Below are positions 14,336-51,382 of a DNA stretch of 64,000 bases, one piece after another. Numbering within the stretch: the first letter of the stretch is position 1; every line of letters begins with the position of its first letter. Below the pieces are notes generated by a model. That model did not search any database. It saw only the letters and a list, made by a program, of their open reading frames with translations, and was not told where the DNA came from. The position numbers and the translations under genes were made by a program. The stretch comes from Fistulifera solaris (Eukaryota), in the NCBI GenBank assembly GCA_030295235.1, contig AP026124.1:806001-870000 (forward strand), written 5' to 3'.

Positions 14336-14817
14336 AATTGCTTACTTGGTCGGTTCGTTTTTTTTTGCTTAGCTCGCTTCACTCATTCACCATGTGGGCT
14401 TGTTGATTTCAGAGAATGAAATCGAATTGGAATTAAAAAAGACAATCTTAACGCGATTGTCTCGATACAAGTGTCTCCGTTTGTCCGCTTCCAACATCGC
14501 GTTTGTATTATCATCGATACACTCCGTATCCAATTTTTTCAACGGAATAGAACGAAATATGTAAAATTTTCAACGGAACTTACAAAGAAGGTTCCTTAAA
14601 TTCATAATAACGTAGACGTTATCGGTGTGAGTATCAAAATACTTACAAGTTGGTAATAAATCCCAACGGATCAAAGCGCCTGTCGTTTGGCCGTCTAGCC
14701 CTAACCCCAAACAAACAACCGTTTCTGCCACCTCTAATTGTGCTTCATCCATTCATTCCTCATCAACACATTTCGAGAGACTCTCTACCAGATGGTAGAG
14801 TGCCCCTAATCGACAGT

Positions 14818-26601: not shown

Positions 26602-29600
26602 ATGGCAAGTTTTTTTGGATTAGGTGGTCTCGGCTCGAGCGACAAGCGCGAGGAATCTGCTTTGATGGCGCATGACAATCTTGGTAGTGGTGAATTGGGA
26701 AGCTCCACTGCTAAGAAAGTCAAGGACGCATCGAAGAAAAAAGAAAGATAAGAAGAAACTCAAAGGATCGGACGCAGCTCTTCATAATGCTGAACTCGCG
26801 GAAAAAGCGGCTCAGGAAATGAAGAGTGCGATGAGTTGGTGGAAACAGGGCCCTACCGGGGCAGCCGATCTAGCGAAGAATAATGACCTCAGCTGGTTGA
26901 ACGATAAAGTGGAAGACGTGAGCGTGATCAGTAAATTCAGCGTCCCTGACATCGAACAATTCCAGGAAGTCGACAAGAATGTAGACATCATGGCAAACTT
27001 GAAAGATCGTAAGCTCCGTACCTTCAAGTACGATCCGGAAGAAGAGGCCAAACGAGCGAAGGAGAATTGAAGAGCGTACAAACAAGATGTTTGACGCGGT
27101 AAACTGGTGGCAAGCAATGAAACCAGGTAGCGCTGATGTACCGGCTGTTGATGTAAATGCTGGAATTGCAGAGTTTAAGGAATTGGCGCAGTGGTGGGCC
27201 GACAACGGGAACCTGCACAAGACCAACATTAAGGCCAAGCGAGCTGGGAAGATCCGTGGCTACATCAGCAAATACAAAGGCCAGACAGCATATATGGCGG
27301 AGGAAGCCGCAAAGATACACAAGGCGCTTTCGTGGTGGGTGAAGAACGGCCAGCAGTATCAAGTTGATTTGGTTGTGTTCGAAGAAAACGTTGAGAAGCT
27401 GAAGAAAGTCAACTTTTGTTCGATCACTGGCAGCTAAAGAGCCTCCCAGTCCGGATGCATGTCAATCCACTTACAGATCCACGTGGCGCTGAACGATTGG
27501 CACAGAAGCTTGAGACGTCTCTTGCACGCTTTATGGAGAAGGGAGAGTTTCAGTTTTCGAGAATCGAGGCGAATGAAGCAGATCCTTTTCGCCAGATCAA
27601 GCATGAACTCATTCGCATTCAAACTAGCAAGATGGGTCCTGAGCGTGTGTCTGAAGAGGTAGAATCGATCCTGTCGTGGTGGAAGGGGCAAGGAGTGTCC
27701 TTCGATCCTCAGAATCCGAAGTCCCCGGATGATTTTATTATGTTTCAAAAAGCGTGTGAGCTTTTCAAATTCTGGGGGATCGAAGAACCGAAAAATGTTC
27801 CTCTCAGCCGTCTCGTGGAGCTTGAAAAGGAGATTCGCAACTCTATTTCTTTTTGGAACCGCAGCAAAGATGTGGACGACGAGCACTTGGATCCCTTTGA
27901 AATGGAAAAGCTGCGAAAGATCAAGAATGTGTCTATTAATTTGTGTCAATACATGACGGAAAAGCAGACGAAGGACTCTATCAAAACCATTGAAGATATG
28001 ATTGGCTGGTGGCGTCTGAAAGGAGGAAAGTTCAATCCAGATTCCAGCTCTCCTAGTGATCTCAAGCGTTTCGAAGATCTCAAAATGCTGTACACCAGTT
28101 ACCGATGCGGACCAGACCTAGTTGCCGATATGGCAGCCAAAGAGCTCGGAGACGATCTGAACTGGTGGCTTCGCAACAACAAAGGGCTAGATGCAAGCAA
28201 GTATAGCGATGCTGATATGAATAGATTCAAAAGGGTTCAGGGTGCTATGCAGTTGTGGTTGAGTAACGGGAAAAGCAAGCAGCTGCAAGGGAAGGCATTC
28301 AATGACTTATCCGAACCTGATGCCATCAGCTTGGCAAAGGAAATAGTTGACTCAATGGAGTGGTTTAACGAGTCGGGCAAGTCTTACGATGTTAAAGAGG
28401 TGCGCGAAAAGCTCCGAGAGTCTTCTGTGTATTCGAGAGAGGCAAAGGACATGTTAGTTTGGCTCAACGATCCGGAAGGCTTAAAAGGTCTCACTACGAT
28501 CGATCTTGAGCACTTCAAACCGAAAGATCTTGATAAACAGGCGAAAGCCCTGAGAGATCAGATGGACTGGTTCAAGAACGAAGGGAAAAACGTTGGTGTC
28601 GCCGAAATCGACAACGAAGAAAAAGTATCAAAAGGCCCAAAAATTAGCTCAGTGGTGGAATGATCACGGTCGGCCGATCTCGAAGAGCGACGCGAAGGAA
28701 GCTACATCAGCTATTGAGGAGATGTTGGCGGGGGCTCGAAGCGCGAAAGGAGACCCCATGCTCGATAATCCGGCCAGGTTCAATTTTCTCAAGAATCTAT
28801 TAAGTGTCTGGTCACCTGAAAGGTCGTCCGGAAAAGCTCTCGATGAGCAAGTGATGAATGAAATCGAAGAGCATTTAGGATGGTGGCGTCAGACAAAGTT
28901 TCCTATTGACACCAGAAAGCTGTCGGAGCCGGAGAAGGTCCCGGTGCAAAATTTACTGCAACTTGTTCATGCTTTCAGAGCCGCGCGAGCAGGACAGAGA
29001 ACGGAAGACGACACGAGTGACGTTCTAGCCTGGACTCGCGAGTCAAATACGACGATCGAATTAGATTCTCACATAGGAAATGCATTGGAGGATGTCATGG
29101 GCTGGTTTGATGTTCAAGGTGCAAAGGACGTCTCAACATCGCCTCTACCAGTCAGTGCCGAAGAGAAGTTCGAGAAAGTGAAAGAAAATCTCGTGTGGTG
29201 GGAGAGGACCGACCCGTCTGCTCGACCCAGAAAAGGTGAAATCGACCAGCTTTACCTCAAGTTTGACTTATTGCCTCCCCTCAAGGAGTGGTGGTCTCAT
29301 CGTGGCAAGGAGTTCGCTGTCCGTAACGGTCATATGAATCTGGAAGAAGCCAAGGATGTCGATAAGAAGCTGAACGCTGCTTTCTTGTGGCTAGAGAAGA
29401 ACTTAAGGGGTGCTGATATCCCTTCTGGTATCGCCACGGATGTGAACAACATGACCAATGCTTTGGGTTGGCTCAGAGGCAAGGATACTGATGCCGAAAG
29501 TATCATGTCCAAGTCTACATCAGCTGGGAACAAGTTTGCTGCAACGCGCCCCTTGACTGAAGAAGAGAAACGGGCTAAAGAAATGGAAGACGCTTTAAAT

Positions 29601-32600
29601 TGGCTTCGCAACAACGACATGAACTTCGGAGACAAAAACCTTGACATTCAGTCTCTAGCTACTCTTTCGAAAATATCCGAGATTATTCCGGGAGCCAAAA
29701 ACATGGAGAAGAGCGATGTTGAAGCTACGATGGAAAGTGCTTTAGATTGGCTCCGTAGCAACGACGACACAAAAGAATTTAGCTTAGACGACATTTCCGT
29801 CGCATCATGGAAGAAAGGAAGGTCGGCTCTCGGTATTGCTAAGACCGATGAAGAACAGAGGGCCAATGAGATGGCAAGCGCCCTTGACTGGCTGAGAAAC
29901 AACAATGTGGCAGACTCCTACGATGTCGCGTCAGTCAAATCTTTCAAATCGCTTGCCAGTTCCAACTTTCTTGCCAAAATTCCAGAGTCTGGATCCGATG
30001 CCGACAACGGCTTTGGGTGGCTGCGCAATGATAGAGCAGTGCGTGGTTTCGATGACATGTCGGACATGTCTTCTAAGAAAAGTACAGGTCAGCTAGCCCT
30101 TAGACCAAAGACCGCCGAAGAGCTTCGAGCAGCGGAAATGGCAAGCGCGTTGGATTGGCTTCGTACGGAAGTTGTCGATTCCCAGTCTGTGGCAAGTGGT
30201 TTAGGCTCGCTCGCTTCGTTTCAAACAATCGGTGGCGGGAAGATTGGAGATACAAGTGAGATGGCAGCAGCTTTGAACTGGTTACGTCAGAACGACGCTG
30301 GTCTTAGAGGTCTCGACGATCCTTCTGTAGCGTCTTCACGTAGGCTTGGAGGACCAATGACTGAAGCTGAGAAGAAAGCCTTGGAAATGCAGAAAGCTCT
30401 TGACTTGTTTAAGCCCGGTGATGCAAGTGTCGGTGGGATGTCCGCTCCCTCCATGGGATCCTTGGGCCTTAGTCTTGCTGGGGGTGGTGCAGAAAGCTCG
30501 GCTATGGAAGATGCACTAAACTGGTTAAGAGGCTACAAAGGGAATAAAGGTGACGATTTGTCGTCTGCTTCGCAAGCGCGCGGTCCTCGTGGTCCAATGA
30601 CTGACGAAGAGAAGAAGGCAAGTGAAATGCAAAAAGCGCTTGACTTGTTGGAAGTCTAGTAACGCTAGTGTTGGTGGAATGTCCGTTCCTTCTGTAGGGT
30701 CACTAGGGCTAGCAGCGTCTCCAGAGATGGGTGACATCTTTGATAGATTCAAGAAAAGACAACTTGATGACCAGTCTATTGGATCTGCGACTTCGCGTCC
30801 ACCCTTGCCAGAACAGAGAAAATCAAATCAGATATATAGTGCATTGGCCTGGTTAAGAAACAACACGCCAGATATTGAAGATCTCGACATGGACACGCTC
30901 AACGCATTTCGGAACCTCGCTGGATTGCCAATTATGGACGTTGACATATCCATTGATAAGAAATCAAAAGCGATTGATGACGCCCTCGACTGGCTCCGAA
31001 AGAACCCACCCAGTGTCGAGTCGTTGGATGACGAGGCCATAGGTACTTTGGCAACCTTGGCTGGTATTGATATGCCTTCGTTTGACTTCTCTCCCGACGA
31101 CAAGGCACAAGCATTTGACGACGTGCTGGCATGGGTGCGGGCGAACGGTCTTGATGCCAACGACATTGATGATGTAGCACTGGTTAGTTTCGCTAATCTT
31201 GCAGGGCTGAAAATGCCTTCGAAGGGAGCCTTATCTCCTGGTGACAAGAAGAGAGTCTTTCAGGATTCTGTGAGCTGGTTACGTAGTAACGACCCTACGA
31301 TCGAAGACGTACAAGCACTGGATGATGACGCCCTTCAAGCCTTGTTGAAAATTAGTGGAGTTGACATAGCACGAAGAAAACCGGAAAAGCTTTCTGATGG
31401 ACAAAAGGAAAACATCATAGAAGGAGCACTCGATTGGCTCCGAAACAATGATTTCACCCCTAATGTCTTGGACGATGCTATGGTGTCTGCTTTGAGCGAC
31501 TTATCTGGACTCCCTATGCCCACGAGAACTATTTCTGAAAAAGATAAAGTTCGCGCAATGGATGACGCACTCCAATGGCTCCGTCAAAAGAATCAGGACT
31601 TTGGAAAACTCGATGAAGGCAAGCTAGTTGCTCTTGCTGAACTAGCGGGCCTTGCAATGCCACGACGAAAAATAGGTAGCGACGATGAAATAAAAAGAAC
31701 TGTCGTGGAGGGTGCCATGAGTTGGATTCGGGGCAAGAAAGCGAAGCCAAGCGCCGTTGATGATCCAACGTTAGCGGCACTGTGCGATATGGCTGGTTTG
31801 GATCTTCCAGATGTCTTTGTTCCAAGCGAAGATAGAGAAGATGCAATGAGAAACGCCTTGGAATGGCTGAGAAATAACCAACCTGATCTCGAAGATGTCG
31901 ATTTTGACGACACATCCATCTACGCGTTTGCCAATTTGGCCGGACTTGACTTGCCACGAGGCAACTTAAATGACACGCAGAAAAAGGAGGCTGCTTCACA
32001 AGGACTTAAATGGCTAAGGAACAACGATGTAAACCTTGAGGAACTTGATATGCCGAGCTTGACCGCTCTTCTTAACATGGCGCGTGTTGACCTTCCGGCT
32101 GCCGAATTTACAAAGAATGATCGCAAGAAGGTATTCGATGATGTCCTGAAATGGATCCGTTCCAACGCTTCGTCTGAGGTATTCGTCGACGAGCTGCCAG
32201 GTTTGAACGCGCTCCTTGAATTGGCTGGAATGTCTGCTCTCCCTGATAACGATGCCTTGAATCCCGCTGCGCACGCGAAGGCCGCATCAGAGGCACTGGT
32301 ATGGCTCCGTGACCATCAACCGAAGAAAGCAAATGTAAACGACCCTATGCTTTATGAACTTGCAAGACTGGGTGGCATCGACTTGCCAAGGATGGAAGTT
32401 TCGAATGAAAACAAGAAACGGGCAATAGACGATGCTCTGCAATGGTTGCGAGCTAACGACCCTATTGTTGAGGATCTGGACGACGTTGACATAGCCGCCT
32501 TCGCCACCGTTGCCGATATCCCACTTCCTCAAGGAACGTTATCTCGCCATGCAAAGCACCACACAATGGATGCTGCTCTTACTTGGCTCAGGGAAAACAA

Positions 32601-35600
32601 TCCTCATGTTGAGAATCTTGACGCCGTCACTGTTGAGGCTTTCAAGAATATCCCTGGCATCCCTCTTCCGAAAAAAGTCTCCTCACTTGACAGGGCGAAG
32701 AAAGTGGAGGAAGCATTTGAATGGTTACGGAATAATGACCCCAATTCGGATGAATTGGACGAAACGGCTCTAATGGCCATTGCCAATCTGAGTGGAGTTC
32801 CGATTCCGCGAAAGATTCTGTCTTCGGAAGAAAAGACAAAACTTGCAGAACAAGCATTTGTGTGGCTAAGAAATAATGATGGAATCGATGCAAACGACGT
32901 TGGACTGCCTGTTGTAGCAGCCTTAGCCGACTTGTCCGGGATTCCACTTCCGCAGAAGAAGGTGACAACAGAGTCAAGAAAGGAGACCGTGGCTGACGCA
33001 CTGCACTGGCTCCGAACACACGATACGCTACATTTGGATGATACAACCGCTTTAGCCCTGGCGAATGTGGCTAACCTAGCACTTGATATACCACGAGGAA
33101 GAGAAAGGGCTAAGCTTTTCGATGATGCGATGCATTGGATAAGAAAAAACAAGGTGAACGTCAATGACGTGGATGAGCCGACCTTGCGAACTCTCGCTGA
33201 AGTATCCGGAATAGATTTACCGAAGGGCAAACTGACGGCATCTGCCAAAAGAGAGGTCTCAACGATATAATGGAGTGGCTTCGAAGCAGCCAAATCACAC
33301 ATGAAAACCTGGACGATCCAGCCTTGCATGCTCTTGCCAAGGTCGCACATATGAAGTTACCGAACAAGCGCCCAATGCCCTCTAACAGCCAAGCTCTTAT
33401 AGATAAGGCCTTACATTGGATCCGAGATAATAATCCCAAGTTGAAGAACGTCGACGACCCAAGCTTGCGAGCTCTCTCGAATCTTGCCGGACTTTCGTTA
33501 CCGAAAGGGAATCTATCCTTGTCTGCGAAGAAAAGCATTTTTGACGATACGCTGCAATGGCTTCGAAAGAATCAAGTCAGAGAGGAAGACATAGACTACC
33601 CGACTCTACTTGCTCTTGCCAACGTCGCAGGGTTGCCTCTCGAAAAAATCCCTTCGACGAATGATGAGATCGTAGATTCCGCTCTTAATTGGATCAGACA
33701 TAAAACACCCAAGTCCAGTGATCTAGATGAACCAACGTTACGGGTTCTAGCAAAGCTCGCCGGGGTCGATTTGCCCAAATCGAAACTCAGCGCCGATGCT
33801 ATGCGAAAAGGGCTACACGACACCGTCAAATGGCTTCGGAACAACGATGTGAGGCAAATTGAACTCAGCGAACCGACAATAGATGCGCTCGCAATTCTGG
33901 CGGATATTCCCTTACCGGGTGGTCGTTGTCAACAAGCGCTTGATAGGAGGAGACTCTTCAAAGATTCTGTAAAATGGCTCCGATCAAATACTCCGAAGAT
34001 CTCGTCAGTCGGCGAACCTGATTTACGGACTCTGGCGGAGTTGGGTGGAATTTCTTTGGCTGTTGGGAAGCTCACTTTGCTGGATAAGACAAACGCTCTT
34101 CATGATGTGCACGAATGGATACGAAACAGCATCTTGAATTACAGTGAATTCGACGATCCTACTTTACGTGCCCTCGCCAATATAGCTGGAATTCCGCTTC
34201 CAGCATCGATGGACTTGCCGAAGAATGTTCAAGAAGAGGTCGACGTGGCTTTGGAGTGGATTCGCAACAACCACCCAAAAGCTAACGAAATCGACGACCC
34301 TACCTTACGCATATTGACCGATCTTTCTGGCACAAACCTGCCCAAAGGAAAGTTGTTCCCTTCTAGTCGGCAGAAAGCACTTGACGATTCTCTGCAGTGG
34401 ATCCGTCAAAATGACTTGCAGGCCAAGAACCTAGACCAACCGACCATCTCGGCCTTGCAAAAGCTAACTGGTATCGTGTTACCTCGATCAAAAATGACAA
34501 CTCACGAGAGGATTGTCGAAGACGTCCTGCAGTGGCTCAGATGCAACGACCCCGACGCTAGTAAGGTTGATGACCCTACCTTACGAACATTGACCAATCT
34601 TTGTGGAATCAAGTTACCGAACCGCAAGCTTCACCTTAAGGAGAAGCAGCAAGCTCTTGATGGGGCTGTACGGTGGCTTCGTGAAAACAGGTTCGAAGTG
34701 GCAGGGTTGGACGATCCTGTAGTACAAGCTCTTGCCACTTTATCAGGGACAAAAACGCCTTTTTTGGTTGCCACGCCATCCTCCACCGATCAAATGGTGA
34801 AAGATGCTATTGAATGGTTGAGACACAACTCTCCCCAAGTAAAGGATATTGACGACCCAAGCTTACTGGCTCTAACGCGAATGAGTGGAGGGGATCCTGT
34901 TGAGGTTTTTAAAGCCAATCCGGAAGGGAAGCAGAAAGCTTTGGATCATGCATTAGAGTGGCTTCGTAACAACGAAGTGTTCTTCGGAGACCTTGACGAT
35001 CCTGAAATCAAGGCCCTTGCCAACCTTTCTGGCATTTCGCTACCGATTGAAGCAGGATTGCCTATTGACAAAAAAGTCAACTGTTGACAAAGTTTTACGA
35101 TGGCTACGCGAGAATAATACTCCAAGCCCCGAGGACCTGGACGAAGATACCATACGCACCTTGGCAAAACTTGCAGGGCGGCCGCTACCACGTGGCGGTG
35201 TCTCCTACGAGAAAAGGGAGAAATCGCTTGAACACTCCGTAGACTGGTTACGAAATAATCGTCTTGATGCCGAAGGCCTCGATGAGCCCACTCTTCAAGC
35301 ACTAGCGAACTTGGCTGGGATTCCAGCTGTTCGTGTTTCGGGCTCTATTCAAAGTCAGCAAGCGACGGTAATGAAGGATGCTCTTGAGTGGCTCAGGAAC
35401 AACAATGTAACAGCAGCAGACTTAAATGATCCCTCAGCACTCGAGGCTCTTTTCGATCTGGCAGAGATCGAATTCCCTGAAGGACTTAGAGTTGATGGAA
35501 GTAAAACGATTGAAGATTGTTTGAATTGGTTACGTAGCAACGAACTCAATCCGAACGAGTTGGACGACCCGATTATTCAAGCTTTTGCTAATATGACAGG

Positions 35601-38600
35601 TTTACCTCTACCTGGGGATTCACTATCAAGGGATCAGAAGGACTTAATTGTTGAAAATGTCTTAGACTGGCTAAAGGAGAATGAGCCGAACCTAGAGGAC
35701 ATGGACGGACCCAGTATTCGCATTCTTTCCAACCTGGCTGGAAAACCACTCCCTAAAGGAAAGATGACGAAAAATGCAAAGAAGAAGGCTCTGGACGATT
35801 CAGTCGAGTGGCTCCGCAGCAACAGACTTAATGGAGAGTCGCTCAGTGAGCCAGTCGTCAAAGCACTCGCAGATTTGGCTGGTGTTTTGTTACCACGTGG
35901 ATCTATTCCTGATGAAGAAAAGGCACGAGTCGTCGCCGATGCATTAAGCTGGGTTCGAGGCAATAACTCACCATCCGTGAATGACGTTGACGAGCCGACC
36001 TTGCGAGCCCTTAGTTCTCTGGCAGGACAGCCTCTACCACGCGGTAGATTATCCCAACCGGAGAAAATTCAAGCCCTCGCTGATGCATTGAATTGGTTGA
36101 GAGCTAACACCCCGATTATCGCTTTTTGGATGATCCATGCGTTCATGCTTTGGCAAATCTCGTTGGAATCACTTTACCTGGTTCCAAGCTGATACCTGAC
36201 GCCACAAAGCAGGTTATTCTCGACGAAGTTCAGGAGTGGATGAGAAACAGCACACCGAAGGCCTGTGACATTGACGAGCAGGGCCTTCGACGACTTGCGA
36301 GCCTTGCAGGAATCGAGCTTCCCCATGGCAAAGTATCTTCTGCGGCAAAGCAAAAAGCTCTTGATGACACACTTATCTGGATGAGGACAAACGATACAGA
36401 CCCAAGGAAAGTAGACGATCCTTGCCTTCACGCTCTAACTACACTTTCTGGAATTCCCTTTCCTCGCGGTGACATCCCACTCCACCACAAAAAAACTGTC
36501 ACGGAACAAGTTTTGTCATGGGTTCGAGCCAACAATCCGGTTGCAGATGACATCGACGAGCCAACTTTGCGTACTCTTTCGACAATGGCAGGCACCCCGC
36601 TCCCAAAGGGGAAACTGAATTCCCTGGTAAAACAGGAAGCGCTGAACAATGTTGTTGAATGGTTGCGAAGAACGAACCCCGATCCGTACAACATTGATGA
36701 CCCCTCAATCTTGGCACTGGCGAACGTAGCCAATATCAAAATGCCAAATGGTGACATTCCTTTGGACCAGAAACGTCAAGTTCTTCAGTACGCTTTGGAG
36801 TGGGTGCGACACAGTGATGCAAAGCCTGAAAACCTTGATGATTTTTGTATTCGCGCATTATCGAATTTAGCCGGGTCCCCTCTCCCTCGTGGTCCACTCT
36901 CTCGAAAGGACAAGAAAACGGCATCTGAGAACGTGTTGAAATGGTTAAGAAACAACCAGCCAAACCCGGCTGATCTAGATGACAGTACTATTCAAGCCCT
37001 TGGGAATCTTTGTGGAATTCCGTTGCCTACTATAAGTATTCCGAAGCATAAAAAGCAGCTGTTGCTTGACGCTGCGATGGATTGGATTCGCGTTCATGAC
37101 CCCAAATCAAATGATTTGGATGAGCCGACTATCAAAGCTTTGGCGACAATCACAGGGATTCCGATGCCAAAAGGCAGACTATCTCGACCGAAAAGTGAAA
37201 AGATCCTACGTGACGCAATCACATGGTTGAGAAGTAATACACTTGATCCAAATGACCTTGATGATCCATCAATTCACGCGCTTTCGACACTTACAGGTAT
37301 TCCTCTAGCGCGGGGAGCTATACCCGTCGAAAAGAAGCAAATCGTGCTTGAAAACGCTCTCCAATGGATACGAGATAACAAACCAAAAGCGGAAGAACTA
37401 GACGAACCAACTGTGCGGACGCTGTCAACTCTTGTCGGCACTCCCCTACCTCCAGGTAAGCTTTCCCGTCTACAAAAAGAGAAAGCTTTAGGTGATGCGG
37501 TCGAGTGGCTGAGACATAACAAGCCGGATGCATATCTTCTTGACGATCCAGCAGCCCATGCACTCGCAAGCCTTTCGGGGTTATCCTTACCCCGTGGAGA
37601 TTTGCCTATTCACAAGAAACGCCCTGTTGTTGAGGACGCAACGGAGTGGTTACGAAATCATCAACTAAACGTTGCTGATATAAGTGAACCTGAATTGCGT
37701 GCTCTCATAAATCTCGCCGGAAAACCCTTGCCACGTGGAAGACTTACTTCGAAGGACAAAACAGAAGCCTTAGACAAAGCTATTCAATGGCTTCGTCATA
37801 ACGATGTTGACCCAAATGACATTGACGACCCGACCGTCTTTGCGTTATCATCCCTCGCCGGGTTTCCTTTGCCGAAAGGTCAGATTCCTTACGAAGATAA
37901 AGCACCAATTGTAGCAGACTCTCTCGATTGGATTAGAGAGAACAATAATGTAACACCCGGTGATTTGGATGAACCATCCGTCCGTGTCCTCTCGACGTTG
38001 GCTGGAATCTCGCTTCCTGTTCGCAAGCTTACTCCACGAGAGAAGAAGGAGGCGATCGACAGCTCAATGGCCTGGATGCGTGAAACAACGCTCGATCCGC
38101 ACGACTTAGATGACCCCGCAATCCATGCCCTTGCCAACTTAGCTGGACTATCGCTTCCGAAAAGATCTTTATCAAAAGCCCAAAAGACAGCTGTCTTGGA
38201 GGACTCACTGGAATGGCTGAGATCAAAGAGTGTTAGTTTTGAACATCTCGACGCTCCTGCGCGCGTTCTTCTTTCAAATCTCACCAACAAAGCACTAGAG
38301 ATTCCTCCCAAAGTTCAGTCGAAAAGGGATAGATTTGAAGATGCCGTTGAATGGATTCGTGGAAACAACATCAATCCCGATGATGTGGATGAGCCAGCCC
38401 TTGTTGCTTTATCGAATATGTCTGGTATTCCACTTCCCAAGGGAAAGATTCCGGTGAAACAGAAAGAAAAAGCTCTCAAATCAGCCTTGGATTGGATCAA
38501 GAATCATGAATCGCTTCCAGATGATCTTGACGAGCCGTCGATCAGGTGTCTTTCGAGCTTAGCGGGATTACCTTTGCCCAGAGGCAAATTGTCTGATCCG

Positions 38601-41600
38601 GTGAAGAAAAAATCTTTGGATGAGGCAATCGAATGGCTTACACACAACTCGCCCGATGTACACAACATCGATGATCCAACCACTTATGCATTAGCCAATC
38701 TTGGGCGCGCGCCGATTCCTGAATATTCCATTCCTTTTGAGAAGAAAGCCCCAATAGTGGAGGAATCACTGGCGTGGGTCCGTGATAATGAACCCAATAT
38801 GAACAACCTTAGTGAACCCGCTTTGCGTTGCCTGGCGAATTTAGCGCACATTCCGTTATCCAGAAGCAAACTTTCCACCCCCGAAAAGGAAAAGGTTCTT
38901 GGTGATGTTGTCAATTGGTTGCGATCGAACGAAGTTCATATCCAAAACCTTGACGACCCCACAGTCCATGCTCTAAGTACTTTGGCGGGGCTTTCGATAC
39001 CTCAAGGCACAATTTCCATCGACAAGAAACGGAATGTCGTCCGAGATTCTCTCCAGTGGGTACGAAATAACGCACCGAGTGATGATAATGTAACTGAGCC
39101 GACTGTTCGAGCTCTTGCAAATCTCGCTGGAATTGTTCTTCCAAAAGGGACCCTTCCTAAACCAGCCAAAAGAAAAGCACTTGATGACGTCTTGGATTGG
39201 TTGCGGTCGAACGAACCTGACGTTTACGCCTTGGATGATCCAGAAGTTCATGCACTTGCATCAATTGCAAGTATTCCGATGCCAACGCCTGGTCGAGGAC
39301 TTGCCGAGAGCGTTAAACGCCCCGTAGTCGAGCAAGCGCTAGACTGGGCACGCAACAACCTAAGCGCTCCGGACGATTTGGATGAACAAACCGTTAGAGA
39401 ACTATCTAACTTGGGAGGAAAACCTTTGTCACGGGGACGACTTTCCAAGCCAGCAAAAAGAAGGCGCTAAATGATGCAATAGCGTGGCTTCGTGATAATC
39501 AACCCAACCCAGATGAGCTGTGTGATCCATCAGTTTACGCGCTTGCGAAATTGGCCTCGGTTCCGTTACCACAAGGACTTATACCACTTGAACAGAAAGA
39601 AGATGTATTAAAGACAACACTGGAGTGGATTCGCAACAACGAACCGAAGCTTGGTGACTTGGACGGACCAACCTTGCGCTGCCTGTCTAACCTAAGTGGG
39701 ACGCCCCTCCCAGTAGGAAAGATGAAACCATCCGAAGAAAAGGTTGTCCTGAACAATGTAGTGGAGTGGTTGAGACAGAACGACCCCAATCCCAATGAAT
39801 TGGACGACCCAACAATTGCGGCTCTGGCCAACTTGTCTGGAATTCAGCTTTTCCCAAGGGATCTCCCAATCGCGACGAAAAAAGCCATCTTAGACGATTC
39901 ACTGGAATGGCTTCGCAACTCTAGACTAAGGCCCGAGGACTTGGACGAGCCCTCTCTTCGAGCTCTTGCAAACTTGGCCGCTGTACCAATACCCCAAGGA
40001 GGTGTCCCTTCTGAAGTAAAAAAGAAGACTTTGGATGTCGTTGTGAATTGGGCACGAGTGAACACCCCAGATTTGGCTGATGTTGACGATCCCACTCTTC
40101 ACACTTTGGCTAATCTAGCAGGGACTCCAATTACCACCAAAAATATACCGTTGGAGCACAAACAACATGTCGTCCCAACTTCTTTTGATTGGTTGAGAAT
40201 GAACACTCCAAGCAAAAGGATTTGACGGAGCCATCGTTGCGGGCACTCGCAAATCTCTCTGGCTTGTCTCTTCCTCAGAGGAAACTTTCGCCAGAGGAAA
40301 TAGAGAATGGATTTGATGATGTACTGGAGTGGCTCCGCACCAACTCGCCTGACATCGAAGAAATGGATGACCCAACTCTTCACGCTCTAGCAAATTTGAG
40401 CAGCGTTCCTATTCCTCGTGGAAACATTCCATTAAAAAGCAAGAACTCCATTATTGACCAAACTGTAAACTGGATTCGCAAGAAACACACCGTCATTGGA
40501 GACGTCGACGAGCCGACTGTCAGAGTGCTGTCAAATTTAGCGGGGCGTCCTCTTCCACCAGGCAAGCTACCTGCCGCTTTGAAGCAGAAGGCACTAGATG
40601 ACGCAATTGAATGGCTCAGACATCATAAACCTCATCCGCATGATGTTGATGACCCAACAACTATCGCGCTGGCTAGCATTGCGGGTTTATCGATTCCCAG
40701 AGGCAACATTCCGATCGAAAAGAAGGGGCCTGTTTTGAAAGATTGTCTTGATTGGGTCCGAAATAACCCTGTCAGTCCCGACGATGTAGATGAATCCACT
40801 TTGCGCACTCTGTCCAATCTAGCAGGCTCGCCGCTTCCACAAAGAAAGCTCTCCCCAACTGAAAAGAGAGATTTGTTGGACAAAGCAGTCGACTGGCTTA
40901 GACGAAACAATCCGAATCCATCAGACCTTGATGACCCAACTATGTATGCTTTGTCAAATCTCTTCGGGATGCCGCTACCACGCGGTGAAATACCCGTTTC
41001 TAAGAAAGTGTCAGTTATCAAGACGTCACTTGAATGGATCCGCAACAATGACCCTTCACCAGACGATATTGACGAACCCGCGCTTCGTGTCCTTTCTAAC
41101 ATGGTCGGACATCCTCTACCACGAGGTGGAATCCCTGCTACGTCAAAAGCAAAGGCCCTCGATGAAGTTGTTGAATGGCTGCGAAACAACAACCCAGATC
41201 CATTCGTGGTTAGTGACCCAACGACAATAGCACTAGCTAATCTCGCGGGCGTCCCCGTTCCGAAGGCGGGGCTACCTTGTGACCAAGTTGAACGTTTAGT
41301 TCAAGATACACTTGAATGGCTCCGAAAGAGTAACTCGATCCCAGATGTTACCGACGAACCATCCTTGCGAGCGCTATGCAGCCTTGCAGGTGCCCCGCTT
41401 CCCAGAGGTAGACTAACCTCAGCGCAGAAGGAAAATGCTATGCATGGTGTGGTAGACTGGTTACGGAACAACAACCCTGATCCTTACGATATTGATGACC
41501 CGACTGCCGTAGCACTCGCCAACCTGGGCGGACTTCCGACGCCGTTAGTTGACACCGTCGTTGAACAGAGGGCTCCACTTGTTGAAAGCGTTCTGGACTG

Positions 41601-44600
41601 GCTTCGATCAACCAATCCTGACTTGAATGATATCGATGAGCCCACGATTGCCGTTATTTGCAACTTGCCAAACGGTGACAAGCTTCAACCAAAGATTCCT
41701 GAATTGAGTGATGACCAGGTCGTTGATAACGTCATGGACTGGCTTCGAAATAACACACCTGGCGATGAGGAAGTTGATGATCCGACTGTTAACGCCTTGG
41801 CTAATTTATCCGGTATCCCGCTACCGCGTGGAACTATTCCTCTCGATCAATCTCGCCCCATAATCGACGCGGGACTGGACTGGGTACGACGAAATGAACC
41901 GAAGTGCGATGATCTAAGCGAACCCGATTTACGCGCCTTGTGCAACCTGGCAGGATGTCCTCTTCCGCGCGGACGCCTCGCTTATCCTGAGAAAGATAAG
42001 GCTTTCAATGACGTTATGGACTGGCTCAGAATCAACAGACCCGATCCAAATGAAGTCGACGACCCAACCACAGTGGCACTAGCCAACTTAATGGGTGTCC
42101 CTTTACCACGGCGATCTATCCCGGCTGACAAAAGAAGTTTGTCATCGAGGAGTCAGTTGACTGGGTTCGTCATAATCAACCTACTGTCGACTATTTGAAG
42201 GAACCGGACTTGCGTGCTCTGGCGAACCTGGCATCAGTCCCGCTCCCTCAAGGAAAACTTTCACCTGAAGTAAAGGAGAGTGCACTTGACGAAATCGTTG
42301 ATTGGTTACGCAAGAACGATCCCAGCCCACTTGATTTGGATGATCCGACCATCCATGCACTTTCAACGCTCTCTGGTGTCCCTCTTCCGAGGGGTAACAT
42401 GCCACTGGAAAAGAAACGTGCTGTTGTTGAAGACAGCCTTGATTGGTGCCGTATCAACAAACCGAAACCAGAAGAAGTTTCAGAACCCAACGTTCGAACT
42501 CTTTCGAATTTGGCAGGAATCCATCTCAACCCCGGCCGACTCCAGCCCGATGAAAAATCGAAAGCATTAGATGACGTGATGGACTGGCTGAGGAGTCACA
42601 ATCCCGAGCCCTCCGAGCTTGATGATCCATCTGTAATTGCATTGTCAAACATCTCGGGCGTCCCGCTACCGAACGGAGAAATCCCTACGGAAGGCAAGAA
42701 AGTCATTATCGACGATGCGCTTGAATGGGTTCGTCACAACGAACCAACACCAGATGTTCTCAAGGAGCTTGATCTCAGAGCTCTTTCAAACCTTGCTGGT
42801 TTTCCTCTCCCCGAGGCACACTCAGACCGTCTCAGAAAACCGACGCATTTGAGGACATCGTTGAGTGGCTTCGCCATAATAACCCGGATCCGAACAATGT
42901 TGACGATCCCACGACACAGGCGCTCGCAAACTTGGCAGGTTTGCCGATGCCAAGAGGGATCCGTGCCATCCCTATTGAAAAGAAACGCCCTGTGATAAAA
43001 GAAGTTATGGACTGGATTCGTAACAATGAAGTTGCGCCTGAAGACGTTGATGAACCCACACTGAGAGAGCTGTCGATTTTAGCGGGATCGCCGTTACCAA
43101 ATGGAAGACCGACACCAAAAGAGAAAGAGGAGTCTTTAGATAATGTGATGCAATGCTTGAGACGAAACGAGCCCAATCCCGATGATGTTGAAGATCCTAC
43201 AACACAAGCGCTATGCAACCTGTCCGGACTCCCGCTACCACGTGTGGACGTTCCCCTTCCGAGCAAAAGAGCTGTGGTCGAGGACGCAGTTGATTGGATC
43301 AGGCATAATCGCCCTCAACCTGCAACCGTTTCAGAGCCCGACTTGCGTGCCCTCGCAAATCTCAGCGGGGTTGCACTTCCCAATCGAAAGCTTTCCCCTC
43401 AAGAGAAAGCGGAAACTCTAGATGAAGTCATGGATTGGTTACGGCATAACAAGCCGGACCCCAAAGATCTTGACTCACCATCAACATTAGCGTTGTCGAA
43501 TATTGCCGGAGTACCGATCCCTCGTGGTTTCATTCCACGTGAAGAAAAACAACCTGTCGTCGAACAAGCCTTGGACTGGCTCCGCACGCGTGAACCGAGT
43601 CTGGAAGATTTTGACGAGCCTACATTACGAGCTCTCACAAATATGGCCGGTGTACCACTCAGTCCGGGAACACCATCTCAGTCCGATAAAGAGCAAGCTG
43701 TCGCTGATGTCATGGACTGGATCCGCTCCAAAGACCCTCACCCGGATGATTTGGACGACCCAGTAGTGCATGCACTTGCAAATATTGCAGGTTTGCCTGT
43801 CCCACGCGGTGAGATCCCTGTTGACCAAAAAGAAACCTGTAATTGATGACGCCATCGACTGGTTGAGGCATAACACACCAACGCCAGATGATATTGATGA
43901 GCCGACGCTTCGACAACTATCGAACTTGGCAGGAAAACCCTTGCAACGTGGACATCTTTCGTCTCCGGATAAGCAGAATGCATTAGAAGATGTAATTGAT
44001 TGGTTGAGGGAGAATAAACCGAAACCCGAGCACATCGATGATCCAACTACGATAGCACTGGCCAACATTTCAGGCGTGCCTTTACCTAAGGGTTCGCTTC
44101 CAATGAATGAAAGAAAACCAATTATTGAAAGTACCATGGAATGGATTCGTAGAAATGAACCGGCACCCGAAAACCTTGATGAACCGTCATTGCGCGTACT
44201 TGCTAGTCTCACTGGTCATCCTGTTCCTCGTGGTGCAATTTTGCCTCACAAGAAGAAAGATATAGTCGATGATGCTATTGAATGGTTGCGTTCGCATGAT
44301 CCTCGCCCAGAAGATCTTGACGATCCGACAATAACGGCGCTGGCTAATCTTATTGGACTTCCACAACCCTCTCCTCAACCAGTAAAACAGAAGGGACCAG
44401 TGTTAGAAGAGGTCTGTGACTGGCTACGAAACAACAAACCCCAAAAGAAAAGCATCGATGAGCCGACTCTCTCTTCGTTGTGTAATCTAGCTGGAATTCC
44501 GCACCCTCCTCGCGCAGTTGGAGAAGTTCCAGTACAGAAAGCGATCGATGATGTCGTAGATTGGCTTCGAGCCCATGAGCCGAGTTTGGAGGACATTGAT

Positions 44601-47600
44601 GAGCCCACTGCTACTACTTTGGCGAATATTGCCGGATTGCCACTTTCTGGAAATCCAAATCCCACGAAGGAAGAGGTAATAAGGGATGTCATGGACTGGA
44701 TACGCACCAACGAACCGGAACCTGATCATTTAGACGAGCCTACAGTACGTGCTTTAACAAACCTTGCTGGAATTCCGCTGAAACCGGGGCGTCTATCTCC
44801 TTCAGAGAAAAAAGAAGCACTGGATGACGCATTGGACTGGATTCGAAACAATGAGCCGTCCCCGCAAGACGTAGACGGGCCTGCAACAGAAGCTTTAGTT
44901 AATATCGCGGGACTTCCGATTCCCCGAAGACAGGTTCCTGCTGTAGAGAAAGAATACATCATCGACGAAGCAATAGACTGGATTCGTCACAACGAACCGA
45001 AGTCCAAGAATGTAACCCAGCCTGACTTGGTTGCTCTCACAAACTTGGCTGGTTTGCCCAACCCGACGAATCCCACTCCTCCACAGAAAGATAAAGTTGT
45101 TGACGACGTCGTTGACTGGCTGCGACACAACGACCCGAATCCTAGCAATGTGGACGAGCCAACAATGGCGGCACTGGCCAATATCGCTGGCATTCCGCTT
45201 CCACAGGGACTTGTTACACCGAGTGATAAAAAGAAGGCAATTGAAGACGTAATGGACTGGGCAAGACAGAAAGATCCAATTCCTGGCGATATCGACGAAC
45301 CATCTACACAGAAGCTTGCCCGTCTCGCTAAGGTTCCTCTCCCTACAAACCCAGTCAAGAAAAAGGCTTTGGATGATGTTATGGATTGGTTGAGAACGAA
45401 TCCCAGTGTTCACGAGATCGACGAACCAACTGCTCGAGTACTGGCGGACCTATCCGGCCAACCTCTTCCGAAGATAAAAATGTCTCCAGCCGAAAAGTCT
45501 GTATTGCTTGATGACATTGTTGAATGGCTAAGGAATAACGAACCAACCCCGACTTCTTCGATGAACCAACTCTTCACGCTCTAGCGAACATTGCTGATGT
45601 GCCTCAACCATCGAAGGAACTTCCTATAGAAGACAAACACCGTGTCCTTGACGAAGCGATGGAATGGATTCGCAGCAATGAACCCAAAGCTGAAGACGTG
45701 GACGTGCCAACACTTTGTTCTCTGGCAAATCTCGCCAATATACCAATACCAGAAAAACCATTGACAGAACCAGAGAAGAAAACGCTTGTTGAGGACTCGT
45801 TAGACTGGCTCCGTTCTAATCGTCCGAATGTTGATCTGGATGAGCCGACCTTGATTACTGTTGCAAATATCGCAGGCGTTCCGGTTCCTAAATCCTTGAC
45901 TACGGAAGACAAGACAAGTATAGTTGATGATACAGTAGACTGGCTGCGAAACCACCCTCCAGAACCAGACAACGTATCAGAACCAGAAGCAAAAGCTATT
46001 GCCTCCCTTGCTGGCGTTCCTCTCCCTAAAAAGCTTCCGCTGCCAATAAAAGAAAAGATCTTGGATGATGTCGTGGACTGGCTGAGGAAAAATGAACCTG
46101 CAGCGGAAGTGTTCGATCTTCCGACTGTCTCAGCCATAGCAAATCTGACAGGGGTCAACTTACCGTCAATAATACCACCCGAGGAAGCGAAGAGGACGGT
46201 GGATGATACTTTGGAATGGATCCGCTCTAACGAGCCGAACCCATCAAGTATTGATGAACCTACACTCATTTCTCTCGCCAACGTAACGGGCACACCACTT
46301 CCAAACATGACGTCTCCCGAAGATAAGCAAAAGTTTATTGATGATTCTCTTGATTGGATTCGACAAAACCCTCCCACGCCAGAAGATGTGGATACACCGA
46401 CGCTTGGTGCATTAACGAACCTAGCTGGAGTTCCCAACCCGAGTCGCCCATTGGGACCTCAGGAAAAGAAACATGTGATAGACGACGTGGTAGATTGGCT
46501 AAGGAGAAATGAACCTAACCCAGATGACGTTGACCAGCCAACCCTTCTTGCGATGACTAATTTGGCAGGAACCCCTTTTCCTCTAACTGAGCTGGCTCTT
46601 GAACCTTCTGAGGAACCATCGTTTGACTGGACCCGACAGAAAGGTCCGAAGTATGGTTTGGGAAACCCAACTCGTCCACAACTGAGTAACCTCCCCATCG
46701 TTCCTGTCAATGCGCTACCACTCGACGAAAGAAAGCAAGCAGTTGAAGATGCGCTTGACTGGTTGCGAAACAATGAGCCTCCACTGGACGATGTTGACGA
46801 GCCAACGCTACGAGCATTCACCAACTTAGCTCAAGTTCCTTTGCCCACGGAAATGAGCCCAGAAGATAAAGCCAAAACGGTGGATGACTTCATGGAGTGG
46901 ATCCGAAGCAATGAACCAAAACCGGGTGATATTGATCTACCGACTCTCACTTCATTGGCAAATATTGCTGGTGTTCCAGTAACAAAAAGCTATCGCCTGA
47001 GGACAAGAAGAAAGTTCTTGACGATTCAATTGATTGGCTACGTAATAATACACCCAATCCCGAAGATCTTGACAATCCCATTGTCACTAGCATCGCGAAC
47101 ATGGCAGGTTTGCCGATGCCAGAAAATACGAAGCCCGAAGACAAGGTCAAGGCTATGGAGGAAGCTATCGATTGGATAAGGAACAAAAACCCTGATGAAC
47201 TTTTGCAGCCTAGCGGTTTCGTGCCGAATAATTTGAGCGGAGTGGAACTCCCCCACCGAACAGGGAAAAAGATGTCGAGACTGTCATGGATTGGCTACGA
47301 AGCAAAGGTGCTAATATACCCGACGAGGAGCCGGAACCCCTAACATCCAAAAACATTCCCCCGGTGCCAGTAAAGAAGCCGGAACAAAAGACCAAGGCAA
47401 TGGAAGATGCCATTGATTGGCTTCGTAACAAGAAGCCAGGACACCCCAATGAAGAAATCAGTCCCATACAATTTCAAAACATACCCTCTGTCGATGGAAT
47501 ACCACAGCCTCAGGATACACCAAGCTGGGATTGGAACCGCAACCGCTATCCACCAGGAATCGACGAACCTCTTCCTTTAGAGTATCCTAGGGCACCAGGA

Positions 47601-49247
47601 CAAGAAACTCCTCGGCAATCTCAGGCTCAGGATGGAGCCACGCCCGTTCAACTGGAACAAGAGGAGCCTGCTTGGGACTGGAACCGAAACCGTGTACCTC
47701 CAGGAACTGATGACCCACTTCCCCTGCAGTTCCCGAGAGGACCGGGACAAGAGACTCCTCTTCAGTCTCAGGCCAAGGACGGAGCTACACCAGCTCAACT
47801 GGAACAAGACGAGCCTGGTTGGGACTGGGCTCGTAATCGTGCACCGCCGGGTGTTGACAACCCAAATCCCATGGACTACAAGAATCTTCCCGGCCCAGAC
47901 GTAGAGAATCCTGAATTTGACTATGACCTCGAGCCTATTGACAACCCGGACGTTGTTGATGGATCAGCTCCGTGGGCTTCAGCACCTGACGAAGCGTCCG
48001 ACGACGGCCGGGGTCCAAAGCCGATGGCCCTTCCAGAAGACATCTATAGCGAACCTTCTTCGGAAGAGCAAGAGGAGCCAAAAGGAACTGTGGTCCCCGT
48101 ACCGATGATGCTTACAGTTGCTATACTGGGATCCATCATTGGCTCGGCGGCGATGTCTGCTGCGCCTCCCGTTCAGCCTGTTCCACCACCAGGGACAGTT
48201 GGACCGACAAGTCCTGGAACACAAGTACTACCCGATTTACCAGTCGTACCCGACATTCCTTGCATAGAAGACCCCGCATGTAATTTCATCATGGGTGCAA
48301 TTGACCCTGTGTACCCTCCAAGTACAAGAGCACTCATTAATATCCCAGGAACCTGCCAAAACTGGTCAAGAGAATGGCTGCGAACCGGCAAAGATATAAT
48401 GGAATTCCAAGTCGAGCGAATTAGGCAGCGTTTCGCAATGGCTCTTGTGTACTGTGAGTTCAATGGTGACAATTGGTTAGAGGGCGAATTGTGGGTCTCT
48501 GAGCTGCATGAATGCGATTGGTATACAATGATCGGTGTGGACCCATGTGGCCGCCGTGAACAGTATCAAATTATCAGAAATACAGGCCAACAGATGCGCG
48601 GTACACTTCCGCCTGAGATCGGTATGATATCATCCCTCTGGGAGATAAGTCTCTCTGATAACCTGCTTTCTGGAACAATCCCAGAAGACTTGAATCGACT
48701 AAGTGAATTGGACACTGTGTCTCTGTCATTCAATCTTCTCACGGGTACTATCCCGTCGTTCATGTATGAATTTTACGACATGACCCACATGGATCTCGCT
48801 TACAACTTTTTCGAGGGACAGTTACCAAACAATAAGCTTAGCATATCGCAGCCAAATCTCAAAGTGCTCTTTCTGGAGAATAATGACCTGAGTGGGCCTC
48901 TGCCGGACGATCTTGGACAACTTCCGCTGAAAAAACTACACTTGGACGGAAACCAGTTCACTGGAAAGATTCCCGAAAATATCCATACACCCGATATGGA
49001 AGAGCTCATGCTGCACAACAACCAGCTCACTGGTACCTTCCCAACCAGTGAGTTTGCCGCAGATGCCGCTGCCGCAGCAGCAAACCCGAAAAAAGTATCC
49101 CCACTGCGAGAAGTAAGCCTTCAAAACAACAAGTTGGAGGGCAGCGTCGACGACATGTGCCCTCTAACAACCCCGAACGTCGGCAGCCTTGCCACCTTCC
49201 AAGTCGACCCAACAGTAGATTGCAGCTGTTGTACTACAGGCGTGTAG
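26602..49247 (+). CDS. Giant (~7,500 aa) predicted single-pass membrane protein: Trp-repeat array, TM segment and C-terminal LRR domain; split by about 18 apparent indel errors
   Basis: ATG 26602 (MASFFGLGGLG). An unbroken chain of overlapping + strand ORFs (26672, 27087, 27416, 28593, 30622, 33270, 34993, 36126, 39551, 40189, 42195, 42932, 43770, 45599, 47101, 47286) keeps repeat register across frame switches. Ends with MMLTVAILGSIIGSAAMSA, QRFAMALVY..FNGDNWL..ECDWY and LxLxxNxLxGxIP LRRs. Confidence 0.82.
30830..47450 (+). repeat. Coding array of roughly 115 diverged ~47-aa (141-nt) repeats
   Basis: Consensus A(L/I/V)(D/E)W(L/I)RxNxPxxxD(L/V/I)D(D/E)PxxxAL(A/S)NLAGxPLPxGxxxxxxK; W-to-W spacing counted as 47 aa. 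Copy number is estimated as 16.6 kb/141 nt. Confidence 0.93.
47526..47860 (+). repeat. Recent 147-bp (49-aa) tandem duplication in the juxtamembrane region of the giant protein
   Basis: WDWNRNR/WDWARNR codons at 47526, 47673 and 47820; PGQETPxQSQAxDGATPxQLEQ(E/D)EP repeated with high DNA identity. Confidence 0.9.
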
Positions 49248-49435
49248 GTCTGTCGCATTCTACATTATATATTTTACGTAAAAGACGAAACGAGGTTTAT
49301 TGAATGCAGGAAAGTTACTTCCCAAGCTTTCTTGCAATCGCGAAGAAGAACGGCAACCATCTCGGGCCGAAGACTCAAAATGATACAAGAAATCGAAGTT
49401 CTTACATCTAATACATATGTTTTCTATTTAATAGG

Positions 49436-50838: not shown

Positions 50839-51382
50839 GGTGATACAGAAATAGAGGTAACCTTACCAGGTAGCAGTTACCAAAGCGACCAACACTAATC
50901 CTGGCTTACGAAAAAGTAGTCTTCGCAGCAATGATTACCTTACAAGGGGAGACGGTGATGAATGAGCCCGTCGCAAATCGCAACCGGCGTTTATTTGACT
51001 GCCTTGTAATTTTCCCTCCAGTGTGCACTAATAATACTCCGTAGAATGTAACGGTGAAGTGCTGTGACTCAACTAGGCTACAGTCCCGGCACTTAGGGCC
51101 CATGCCCATGTCTTACCAGGTATCGCAGTCCTGGAAAGTTGTCCCGGAGTGAGGAGTGAGGAGGATTGGGCGTTCTACGTTAATCGAAGAATAAGGTTAA
51201 GACTATTCCGGGAAAGAATGACCCTTTTCCCTTTTGACTTGATTGCCTCACGGTTTTGAGCGAACAAAACCACATGGGGACAGAATATATTATTTGGTCC
51301 TGATGAGTATGCTCTCGGCAACAGTTGTTCATTGCAACAAACTCACACAATACTGCTGGAGGTAATATTTTCTATTATAGCA

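Follow-up and report, generated by a model that had tools for sequence, protein, structure and literature searches.

We analyzed a window of 64,000 nucleotides (nt) from contig AP026124.1 of the diatom Fistulifera solaris, and all coordinates below are positions within this window. The subject is a very long coding region on the plus strand, 26602-49247, with a divergent kinesin gene on one side, a convergent HAD-hydrolase gene on the other, and ordinary eukaryotic nuclear genes around it. As assembled, this region falls apart into 17 overlapping open reading frame (ORF) pieces with 16 frame switches between them and no gap (stop-to-stop ORF listing), in agreement with a first-pass annotation that had counted about 17 plus-strand ORFs over 22.6 kb. 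Sixteen of these ORFs overlap across 26666-49247, and the seventeenth piece opens in frame 0 with the ATG at 26602 and runs as far as an A-run near 26745. The evidence given below supports the view that the 17 pieces are one gene and that consensus errors of one base each in the assembly account for the 16 frame breaks. The restored gene would encode a giant protein with an array of Trp-containing 47-residue repeats, a single predicted transmembrane (TM) segment and a leucine-rich repeat (LRR) domain, arranged as follows:

26602-49247, plus strand: whole coding region, ~7,550 codons once 16 single-base frame errors are corrected, with its stop codon at 49245-49247.
26602-30816, plus strand: N-terminal region of ~1,400 amino acids (aa), with the Gly-rich start MASFFGLGG; collinear with the related protein P0004 and partly with P0006.
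30817-47142, plus strand: canonical array of 112 units of 47 aa, defined by a unit hidden Markov model (HMM) and AlphaFold2 models.
47140-48086, plus strand: juxtamembrane region with three truncated units, three Pro-rich repeats with WDW(N/A)RNR, and an acidic PWASAPDE...GRGPKP segment.
48087-48164, plus strand: single predicted TM segment TVVPVPMMLTVAILGSIIGSAAMSAA (best Kyte-Doolittle 19-mer, 1.96).
48165-49244, plus strand: C-terminal 360 aa, comprising a Pro-rich linker, an N-cap that contains Cys, LRRs and a CSCC end.

Copies of the Trp-containing motif follow one another at intervals of 141 nt (47 aa), which become 140, 142 or 143 nt where a frame switch intervenes. The register of the repeats, already reported to continue from frame to frame, is thus held within 1-2 nt across the switches, which rules out introns and indicates single-base indels. 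We aligned short-read contigs of four public runs to the interval 29300-49250 (up to four runs, from three studies): X1 and X3, which carry the same organism label; X5, a freshwater metatranscriptome (rRNA-depleted RNA library); and X6, a wetland metagenome. The first-pass annotation had proposed that stops kept in accurate reads would speak for a pseudogene or for several genes. A compensating 1-nt indel was found inside the overlap zone at all 12 of the switches tested within this interval. The window is short of one base at nine of them and has one base extra at three, and runs of 4-6 A or C host 10 of the 12 indels, the usual signature of long-read consensus errors. For nine of the 12 switches, two or more runs support the change at their full depth; the indel list has seven further rows beyond those considered. 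When the 12 corrections were applied by script, the sequence became one frame that stays open for 6,899 codons between 28554 and the stop codon at 49245-49247 and terminates in PTVDCSCCTTGV. The remaining four junctions are spanned by P0004, a 92%-identical relative of 1,598 aa recorded as a "hypothetical protein" (NCBI/JGI), which shares the start Met at 26602 (MASFFGLGG...), is collinear with 26602-31401 at 80-96% identity, and reads through five frame switches, the four upstream ones and that at 30650. The earlier proposal of a single hidden gene is therefore supported. The individual switches are listed below, with figures giving the contig depth with the change over the depth at the site.

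26714-26745, plus strand: switch 1 (frame 0 to 1), in or adjoining an A-run; P0004 reads through.
27060-27064, plus strand: switch 2; P0004 query coordinates continue across (154 then 153).
27413-27419, plus strand: switch 3; P0004 continues across (272 then 271).
28575-28648, plus strand: switch 4, a zone with three A5 runs; P0004 continues across.
30650, plus strand: switch 5, one base extra; X1 10.9/10.9, X3 39/39, X6 19.5/44.
33246-33247, plus strand: switch 6, A missing (A4 run); X1 10.1/10.1, X3 32.6/32.6, X5 2.83/2.83, X6 30.7/30.7.
35070, plus strand: switch 7, extra A (A6 run); X1 31.5/31.5, X3 32.3/32.3, X6 9.2/20.6.
36109-36110, plus strand: switch 8, C missing (C4 run); X1 23.7/23.7, X3 23.8/23.8, X6 23.3/23.3.
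39454-39455, plus strand: switch 9, A missing (A5 run); X1 142.5/142.5, X3 16.2/25.8, X6 14.6/14.6.
40213-40214, plus strand: switch 10, A missing (A4 run); X1 85.6/85.6, X3 42.1/42.1, X6 12.2/12.2.
42129-42130, plus strand: switch 11, A missing (A4 run); X1 73/73, X3 30.9/30.9, X5 3.65/3.65, X6 25.2/25.2.
42811-42812, plus strand: switch 12, G missing (beside a C4 run); X3 19.3/33.2, X6 16.2/16.2, X5 0/5.2, X1 no cover.
43827, plus strand: switch 13, extra A (A5 run); X1 144.1/144.1, X3 25.2/25.2, X5 3.32/3.32, X6 19.5/19.5.
45546-45547, plus strand: switch 14, C missing (C4 run), partial support; X1 167.6/284.1, X3 42.5/70.7, X6 0/16.6.
46983-46984, plus strand: switch 15, A missing (A5 run), supported by one run; X3 35.2/35.2, X6 0/19.4, X1 no cover.
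47249-47250, plus strand: switch 16, C missing (C5 run); X1 305.3/305.3, X3 16/16, X6 8.2/19.4.

Introns were considered and rejected as a cause of the switches: X1 and X3 showed no intron-like joint, the four joints listed were of low depth and came from the metagenome or metatranscriptome, and the corrected frame is continuous without splicing. A neighboring kinase gene on the minus strand (54286-55459) is likewise broken into two overlapping ORFs, which meet at Pfam Pkinase positions 127/132. This split is probably another single-base assembly error, so that such frame errors are not peculiar to the giant gene.

The array itself is not likely to be a product of mis-assembly, because no pair of units exceeds 67.5% DNA identity and the contigs place singly. 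None of the contigs of X1, X3 and X6 fitted two places, and one of X5 did. X1, X3 and X6 cover all 30 bins of 29300-49250 and X5 covers 24 of the 30, the six bins without X5 cover being evidence of nothing. Mean identity among the 112 units is 36% at the aa level (maximum, 70%) and 46% at the DNA level (maximum, 67.5%), and this low identity indicates that the array is old as well as uniquely mappable. Among the 40 best-supported of 1,810 variants, read in the corrected frame, 27 are synonymous and 13 non-synonymous, and 28 fall on codon position 3; this preponderance of synonymous changes indicates purifying selection. Fifty-four contigs of the metatranscriptome X5 align to 29300-49250, 20 of them at ≥99% identity. 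Hence, the gene or a close allele is probably transcribed in nature, carry-over of DNA into the library being the other possible source of these contigs. Related fragments were also found in a source labelled merc, which we take to be a marine eukaryote transcript catalogue. The depth of X1 climbs from ~34 on the 5' side to 240-316 on the 3' side, a gradient that poly(A)-primed cDNA from a single long transcript would produce, but to which we gave no weight because contig depth cannot rank parts of a gene. The numbers of X1/X3 contigs were 74/129 at ≥99% identity, 31/50 at 95-99% and 29/49 at 90-95%, and the lower-identity contigs suggest that the giant gene exists in a second, diverged form (allele, haplotype or paralogue).

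We next describe the protein, with residues numbered on a read-through that begins at 26666 and has an X at each break. The N-terminal region contains a Lys-rich stretch at about residues 36-55, followed by irregularly spaced, degenerate Trp-helix units, first of the type xxWWxxxG and then of the type EEKRAKEMEDALNWLRNN, whose helices end in W-W or W-L-R. The canonical array was delimited with an HMM of the 47-aa unit, which we built from 76 exactly spaced units and applied with a threshold of 30 bits; 112 units score above it between nt 30817 and about 47140. The unit consensus is.K..ALDDALDWLR.N.P.P.DLDDPTLRALANLAG.PLP.G.LP.., with W12 present in 99% and R14 in 97% of the units. In the middle third of the array two unit types alternate, DDP...HALA...PRG.IP and DEPTLR.LS...PKGKLS, and the identity between units is higher at even lags (0.40) than at odd lags (0.355), giving a 94-aa super-repeat. 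The elements of the juxtamembrane region, the WDW(N/A)RNR repeats and the PWASAPDE segment, are shared with the related proteins P0001 and P0006.

A Kyte-Doolittle scan from 26666 onward found one hydrophobic stretch that stands out, within a few bases of the position first proposed for it (about 48090-48165). The runner-up 19-mer, at 1.32, lies within a repeat, and the first 21 residues, which precede the scanned part, are only mildly hydrophobic by hand calculation. In all, 7,144 residues with a net charge of -268 precede the TM segment, which lies 360 residues from the C-terminus. The part after it agrees with the Cys-rich cap, plant-type LRRs and CSCC end described in the first-pass annotation: the Pro-rich linker is followed by the cap sequence QRFAMALVYCEFNGDNW...C.W...C and then by LRRs of the pattern LxxLxLxxNxLxGxIP. 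The Pfam families LRR_1 (PF00560; 53.5 bits, cut-off 20.6) and LRR_4 (PF12799; 33.2 bits, cut-off 27) matched above their cut-offs, LRR_8 (25 bits, cut-off 27) matched below it, and the LRR matches cover about 48759-49049. These 360 residues contain 10 Cys, including a C..C ahead of the LRRs and the CSCC at the end, so that Cys makes up 2.78% of the residues after the TM segment vs 0.42% before it, a 6.6-fold difference. Pfam reported no kinase family in the five ORFs scanned, and the other array ORFs consist of the same units.

The unit had been described as not assignable to any named family, and our searches with Pfam, PDB sequences and two-unit pieces likewise returned no match. The Pfam families listed for array ORFs, including DUF6570, DUF3052 and UBA_7, are repeat artefacts made up of summed sub-threshold scores with no separate matching stretch (0), and we rejected them. 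When 39 two-unit pieces were searched, UBA_7 matched nine of them weakly (best E, 8.7e-4; under the cut-off), and LEM and SAP were not among the 25 of 42 families shown. A sequence profile search of the PDB had a best E of 0.047, which we judged to be chance, and none of the 18 PDB sequences at E ≤10 was a LEM or SAP chain; the ESM Atlas gave no usable match. AlphaFold2 modelled two units from the 39 aligned two-unit pieces with a predicted local distance difference test score (pLDDT) of 91.2 and a predicted template modelling score (pTM) of 0.79. Within each modelled unit, helices of ~15 and ~11 residues are separated by a short helical turn and followed by an extended linker, rich in Pro, of ~10 residues. 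Among 48,161 PDB chains compared with the model, the LEM domain of emerin ranked first (Z, 5.6; root-mean-square deviation [rmsd], 3.0; 47/47 residues aligned) and also second (Z, 5.2; rmsd, 2.1; 42/42 aligned), and that of LAP2 ranked fourth (Z, 4.5). A six-unit model (pLDDT, 74.5; pTM, 0.45) retrieved the same top structural matches. Further down the list came SAP-type domains, those of CDNF, MANF, Hcc-1, SLX4 and the Rho N-terminus. The matched part, model residues 16-65, takes in the turn and short helix of one unit, then the linker, and lastly the long helix of the unit that follows; in the model it has a helix-extension-helix (HeH) topology. The unit is thus modelled as a LEM/HeH-like helix-loop-helix on a weak fold match, and the array would probably be a chain of ~112 small folded domains.

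Searching 1.84 billion representatives with a 94-position unit profile identified 401 proteins at E ≤0.001, 64 of them at E ≤1e-30. At least one unit was found in 140 of the 142 profile hits shorter than 600 aa. These short hits look like fragments of long genes and, with the record of P0004 as a 1,598-aa hypothetical protein, bear out the expectation that automated annotation would fragment the gene. P0006 (1,448 aa) has a Met start, an N-terminus that is not hydrophobic, a degenerate N-terminal region, ~6 canonical units, PWAS.PDE, a TM segment, cap and LRRs, and ends in CNCCSSGD. It aligns to window residues 827-1549 and 6325-7529, with ~4,800 residues between them absent, and so fits the earlier remark that such modules usually have a modest N-terminal region. 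P0001 (1,383 aa, cut at its 5' end) has the same C-terminal half. Compared with P0006, P0001 and P0004, the giant protein has in common the degenerate Trp-helix region, 47-aa units, WDWNRNR, PWAS.PDE, the TM segment, a QRFAMA cap, LRRs and a Cys-rich end; P0006 has ~6 canonical units vs 112, and none of the three is annotated at giant length or named. The predicted layout is thus conserved while the unit number varies from about 6 to 112. P0002 (2,270 aa) shares the unit with the giant protein but lacks its TM segment and LRRs; it contains 24 units by the same HMM, with 26-28% identity over ~1,700 aa, a coiled-coil-like N-terminal stretch and a Ser/Pro/Lys-rich tail. P0090, a Pseudo-nitzschia multiseries model (JGI Psemu1), has diverged WLR repeats.

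The TM-cap-LRR module has 480 relatives at E ≤0.001 (proteins of 212-676 aa). Among the 120 relatives listed, 60 have a QR[FY]A cap; a hydrophobic segment lies upstream of it in 41 of these, and a WDWNR-like motif precedes that segment in 17 of the 41. Some are named "leucine rich repeat [Seminavis robusta]" or come from MMETSP transcripts, and wherever relatives carry names, these point to diatoms (Pseudo-nitzschia, Seminavis) or to MMETSP transcripts. No full-length relative turned up in a word-index search covering proteins from 1,961 to 5,000 aa, which is weak evidence. Two long proteins, P0028 and P0036, consist solely of a diverged ~50-aa unit, ...LP.K.GQSPEDRA.EME.AL.WLR..G, the type of the N-terminal units of the giant gene at about nt 29450-30520; the Trp-helix repeat superfamily is thus broader than the 47-aa form. 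Three bacterial surface proteins (P0015, P0095 and P0142) were rejected as compositional look-alikes without the Trp motif or a unit HMM match. Their profile E values range from 4e-50 to 3e-17, they have a tandem ...NLSG.NTGDQDL... repeat, and the resemblance is confined to a LANL(A/S)G stretch. Two of the three have an N-terminal hydrophobic, signal-like segment; P0142 matches Fib_succ_major, and P0095 has a sub-threshold match to Lcl_C.

With no signal peptide, a feature likewise missing from P0006, and with 7,144 residues ahead of the sole TM segment, the array is expected to be cytoplasmic, and the LRR domain, being 6.6-fold enriched in Cys, should face the outside or a lumen. Three features, the missing signal peptide, the bulk of the N-terminal part and the Cys enrichment after the TM segment, lead us to infer a type II topology, in which the array would lie on the cytoplasmic side and the Cys-rich LRR domain outside the cell or in an organelle lumen. 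According to the models, each unit would run from a short helix through a Pro-rich loop of 10 residues to a long helix closed by the invariant Trp, and the chain would comprise ~112 such small folded domains plus ~25 degenerate ones. If extended, it may reach, by rough estimate, a length of a few hundred nm. The LRR domain would bind an extracellular or lumenal partner, and the array may be a membrane-anchored spacer or multivalent scaffold, the length of which would alter by gain or loss of units. A binding role for the DW.RN.P motif is favored by its persistence in the degenerate juxtamembrane repeats.

Each of three known groups of proteins resembles part of this predicted layout. Stramenopile and plant-type LRR receptor-like proteins share the LRR_1/LRR_4 matches, the LxxLxLxxNxLxGxIP pattern, Cys caps and a single TM segment. 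Plant receptor-like proteins are of type I; in the giant protein, by contrast, the LRRs are C-terminal to the TM segment, there is no signal peptide and no kinase, and the putative cytoplasmic part has ~7,140 aa. The predicted unit resembles the LEM/HeH domains of emerin and LAP2 in its helical turn, short helix, ~10-residue loop and long helix, and proteins of the emerin/LAP2 type also carry a C-terminal TM segment. Unlike these proteins, the giant protein has no match to the family at the sequence level, contains 112 tandem copies instead of one or two, and has an acidic array. Nesprins, ANC-1 and MSP-300 combine a giant cytoplasmic array of small helical repeats with a single C-terminal TM segment and a short exoplasmic end, an analogy of layout only: spectrin repeats, a CH domain and a KASH peptide were not listed by Pfam for the ORFs scanned, and the exoplasmic part (on the side proposed here) is a 360-aa LRR domain, unlike that of the nesprins.

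We consider it reasonably likely that the locus is an intact, expressed nuclear gene for a single-pass membrane protein of ~7,550 aa (roughly 830 kDa), a tether or scaffold with type II topology. Several observations weigh against this. Correction of the frame is only partial at 45546 (X1 167.6/284.1, X3 42.5/70.7, X6 0/16.6), rests at 46983 on X3 (35.2/35.2) with none in X6 (0/19.4), and is weaker at 42811 (X3 19.3/33.2, X6 16.2/16.2, X5 0/5.2). Contigs are unable to demonstrate one transcript or one start site. The RNA nature of X1-X4 is a guess, and these runs possibly come from the same sample as the assembly, which is immaterial for error correction; X5 and X6 belong to other studies. With regard to topology, the N-flank of the TM segment is acidic (SEPSSEEQEEPKG) and the C-flank neutral, so that the charge difference does not favor N-in, and the first 11 residues (MASFFGLGGLG) are mildly hydrophobic. 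With regard to the fold, Pfam LEM (PF03020) and SAP (PF02037) were not listed at E ≤0.1 for three array ORFs, Foldseek found nothing in the PDB at E ≤0.001 with either the six-unit or the two-unit model, and Z scores below 8 may, as the structure-search tool cautions, reflect only a common arrangement. Z scores under the trust level and the Foldseek result make the LEM/HeH-like fold a lead and not a membership, and the six-unit pTM of only 0.45 means that a rigid rod is not established. If the frame breaks were real, the locus would be a pseudogene or a row of separate genes of which at most pieces are translated. The 16 breaks in the window as assembled, the annotation of P0004 at just 1,598 aa, and the absence of the correction from 116.5 of 284.1 in X1 at 45546 and from X6 at both 45546 and 46983 fit this explanation. 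We nevertheless regard it as scarcely credible given the correcting indels at 12 of 12 tested junctions, 10 of them in homopolymers, the resulting open frame of 6,899 codons, the mostly synonymous variants, the four other junctions spanned by P0004 and the kinase gene broken in the same manner. It is also quite improbable that the array is a lineage-specific, largely neutral expansion whose length has no role, function resting on the N-terminal region, the TM-LRR part and just a few of the units. P0006 manages with the same layout and ~6 canonical units, but a neutral insert of 16 kb should decay, whereas these old, diverged units (DNA identity, mean 46% and maximum 67.5%) all keep an open frame and their core residues, and here, too, the mostly synonymous variants argue for constraint.

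The other alternatives accept the intact gene and differ on what the array does. In a signalling receptor, the LRR domain would sense a ligand and the ~112 units, or their DW(L/N)RN.P ends, would dock a cytoplasmic partner, making the array a platform and not a spacer. The retention of W12 (99%) and R14 (97%) in units that share 36% identity, the persistence of the motif, in the form WDWNRNR, within degenerate juxtamembrane repeats of both this protein and P0001, and the occurrence of the unit in P0002, outside the TM-LRR context, as a portable module are consistent with docking; the conserved Trp may, however, be merely the hydrophobic core of the hairpin, there is no known partner, a kinase or other signalling domain is absent from the Pfam results for the ORFs scanned, and P0006 has only ~6 units. 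We think this function unlikely, while taking it seriously. We give little credence to a nuclear-envelope or chloroplast-endoplasmic reticulum (ER) tether, with the LEM/HeH-like array in the nucleoplasm or cytoplasm, the C-terminal TM segment as anchor and the LRRs in the lumen. LEM domains of emerin and LAP2 are the top fold matches for two independent models, the TM segment lies near the C-terminus as in the N-in, C-terminal-TM layout of LEM proteins and nesprins, and the Lys-rich stretch near the N-terminus, present also in P0004, resembles a nuclear localization signal. Set against this, the Z score does not exceed 5.6, the Pfam hits listed for the ORFs include none to LEM, SAP or KASH, a net charge of -268 fits DNA binding poorly, Cys-capped plant-type LRRs are typical of cell-surface proteins, and a domain of ~800 kDa is far over the known size limit for reaching the inner nuclear membrane. 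The broader and also rather doubtful idea is that the protein might be a membrane-anchored molecular ruler or tether of >110 LEM/HeH-like domains, the diatom counterpart of the LEM/LINC (linker of nucleoskeleton and cytoskeleton) envelope proteins, placed at the nuclear envelope, the chloroplast ER or the plasma membrane under the frustule, with the LRRs lumenal or outside and the number of units setting a distance of a few hundred nm.

Elsewhere in the window, overlapping same-strand ORF pairs occur at 6008-8036 (plus strand; including a Lactamase_B_2 match), 12915-14341 (minus strand) and 49436-50862 (minus strand). The last pair, with HAD-hydrolase and NUDIX matches, may represent a single broken gene or two separate ones. 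Errors of this frameshift kind may be common across the window. At 20470-23631 (minus strand), ORFs of 662 and 390 aa lie in one frame with a single stop between them, neither with a Pfam match; they may belong to a single larger gene that carries an error, or be separate genes. Near-identical adh_short_C2 matches (168.5 and 169.2 bits) at 57869-59056 and 59956-61008 (both minus strand) indicate that an enoyl-ACP-reductase-like gene has been duplicated in tandem.

Neither the LRR module nor the concept of a giant repeat protein anchored in a membrane is new; the unit family, the reversed orientation of the LRRs and the 112-fold array are. A full-text literature search returned no paper on such a protein, as far as titles and the openings of abstracts indicate. 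Homopolymer errors in the long-read assembly conceal this 22.6-kb gene, which annotation pipelines would report as ~17 hypothetical genes, and its relatives appear in databases only as fragments or hypothetical proteins. The repeat family that this gene defines has no name and occurs widely in data from environmental eukaryotes, with 401 hits, one of them from Pseudo-nitzschia. Overall, if the array is a folded chain, the protein would be among the longest membrane-anchored proteins outside animals and a candidate, open to test, for the connection between an LRR sensor at the surface or in a lumen and structures deep inside the cell.

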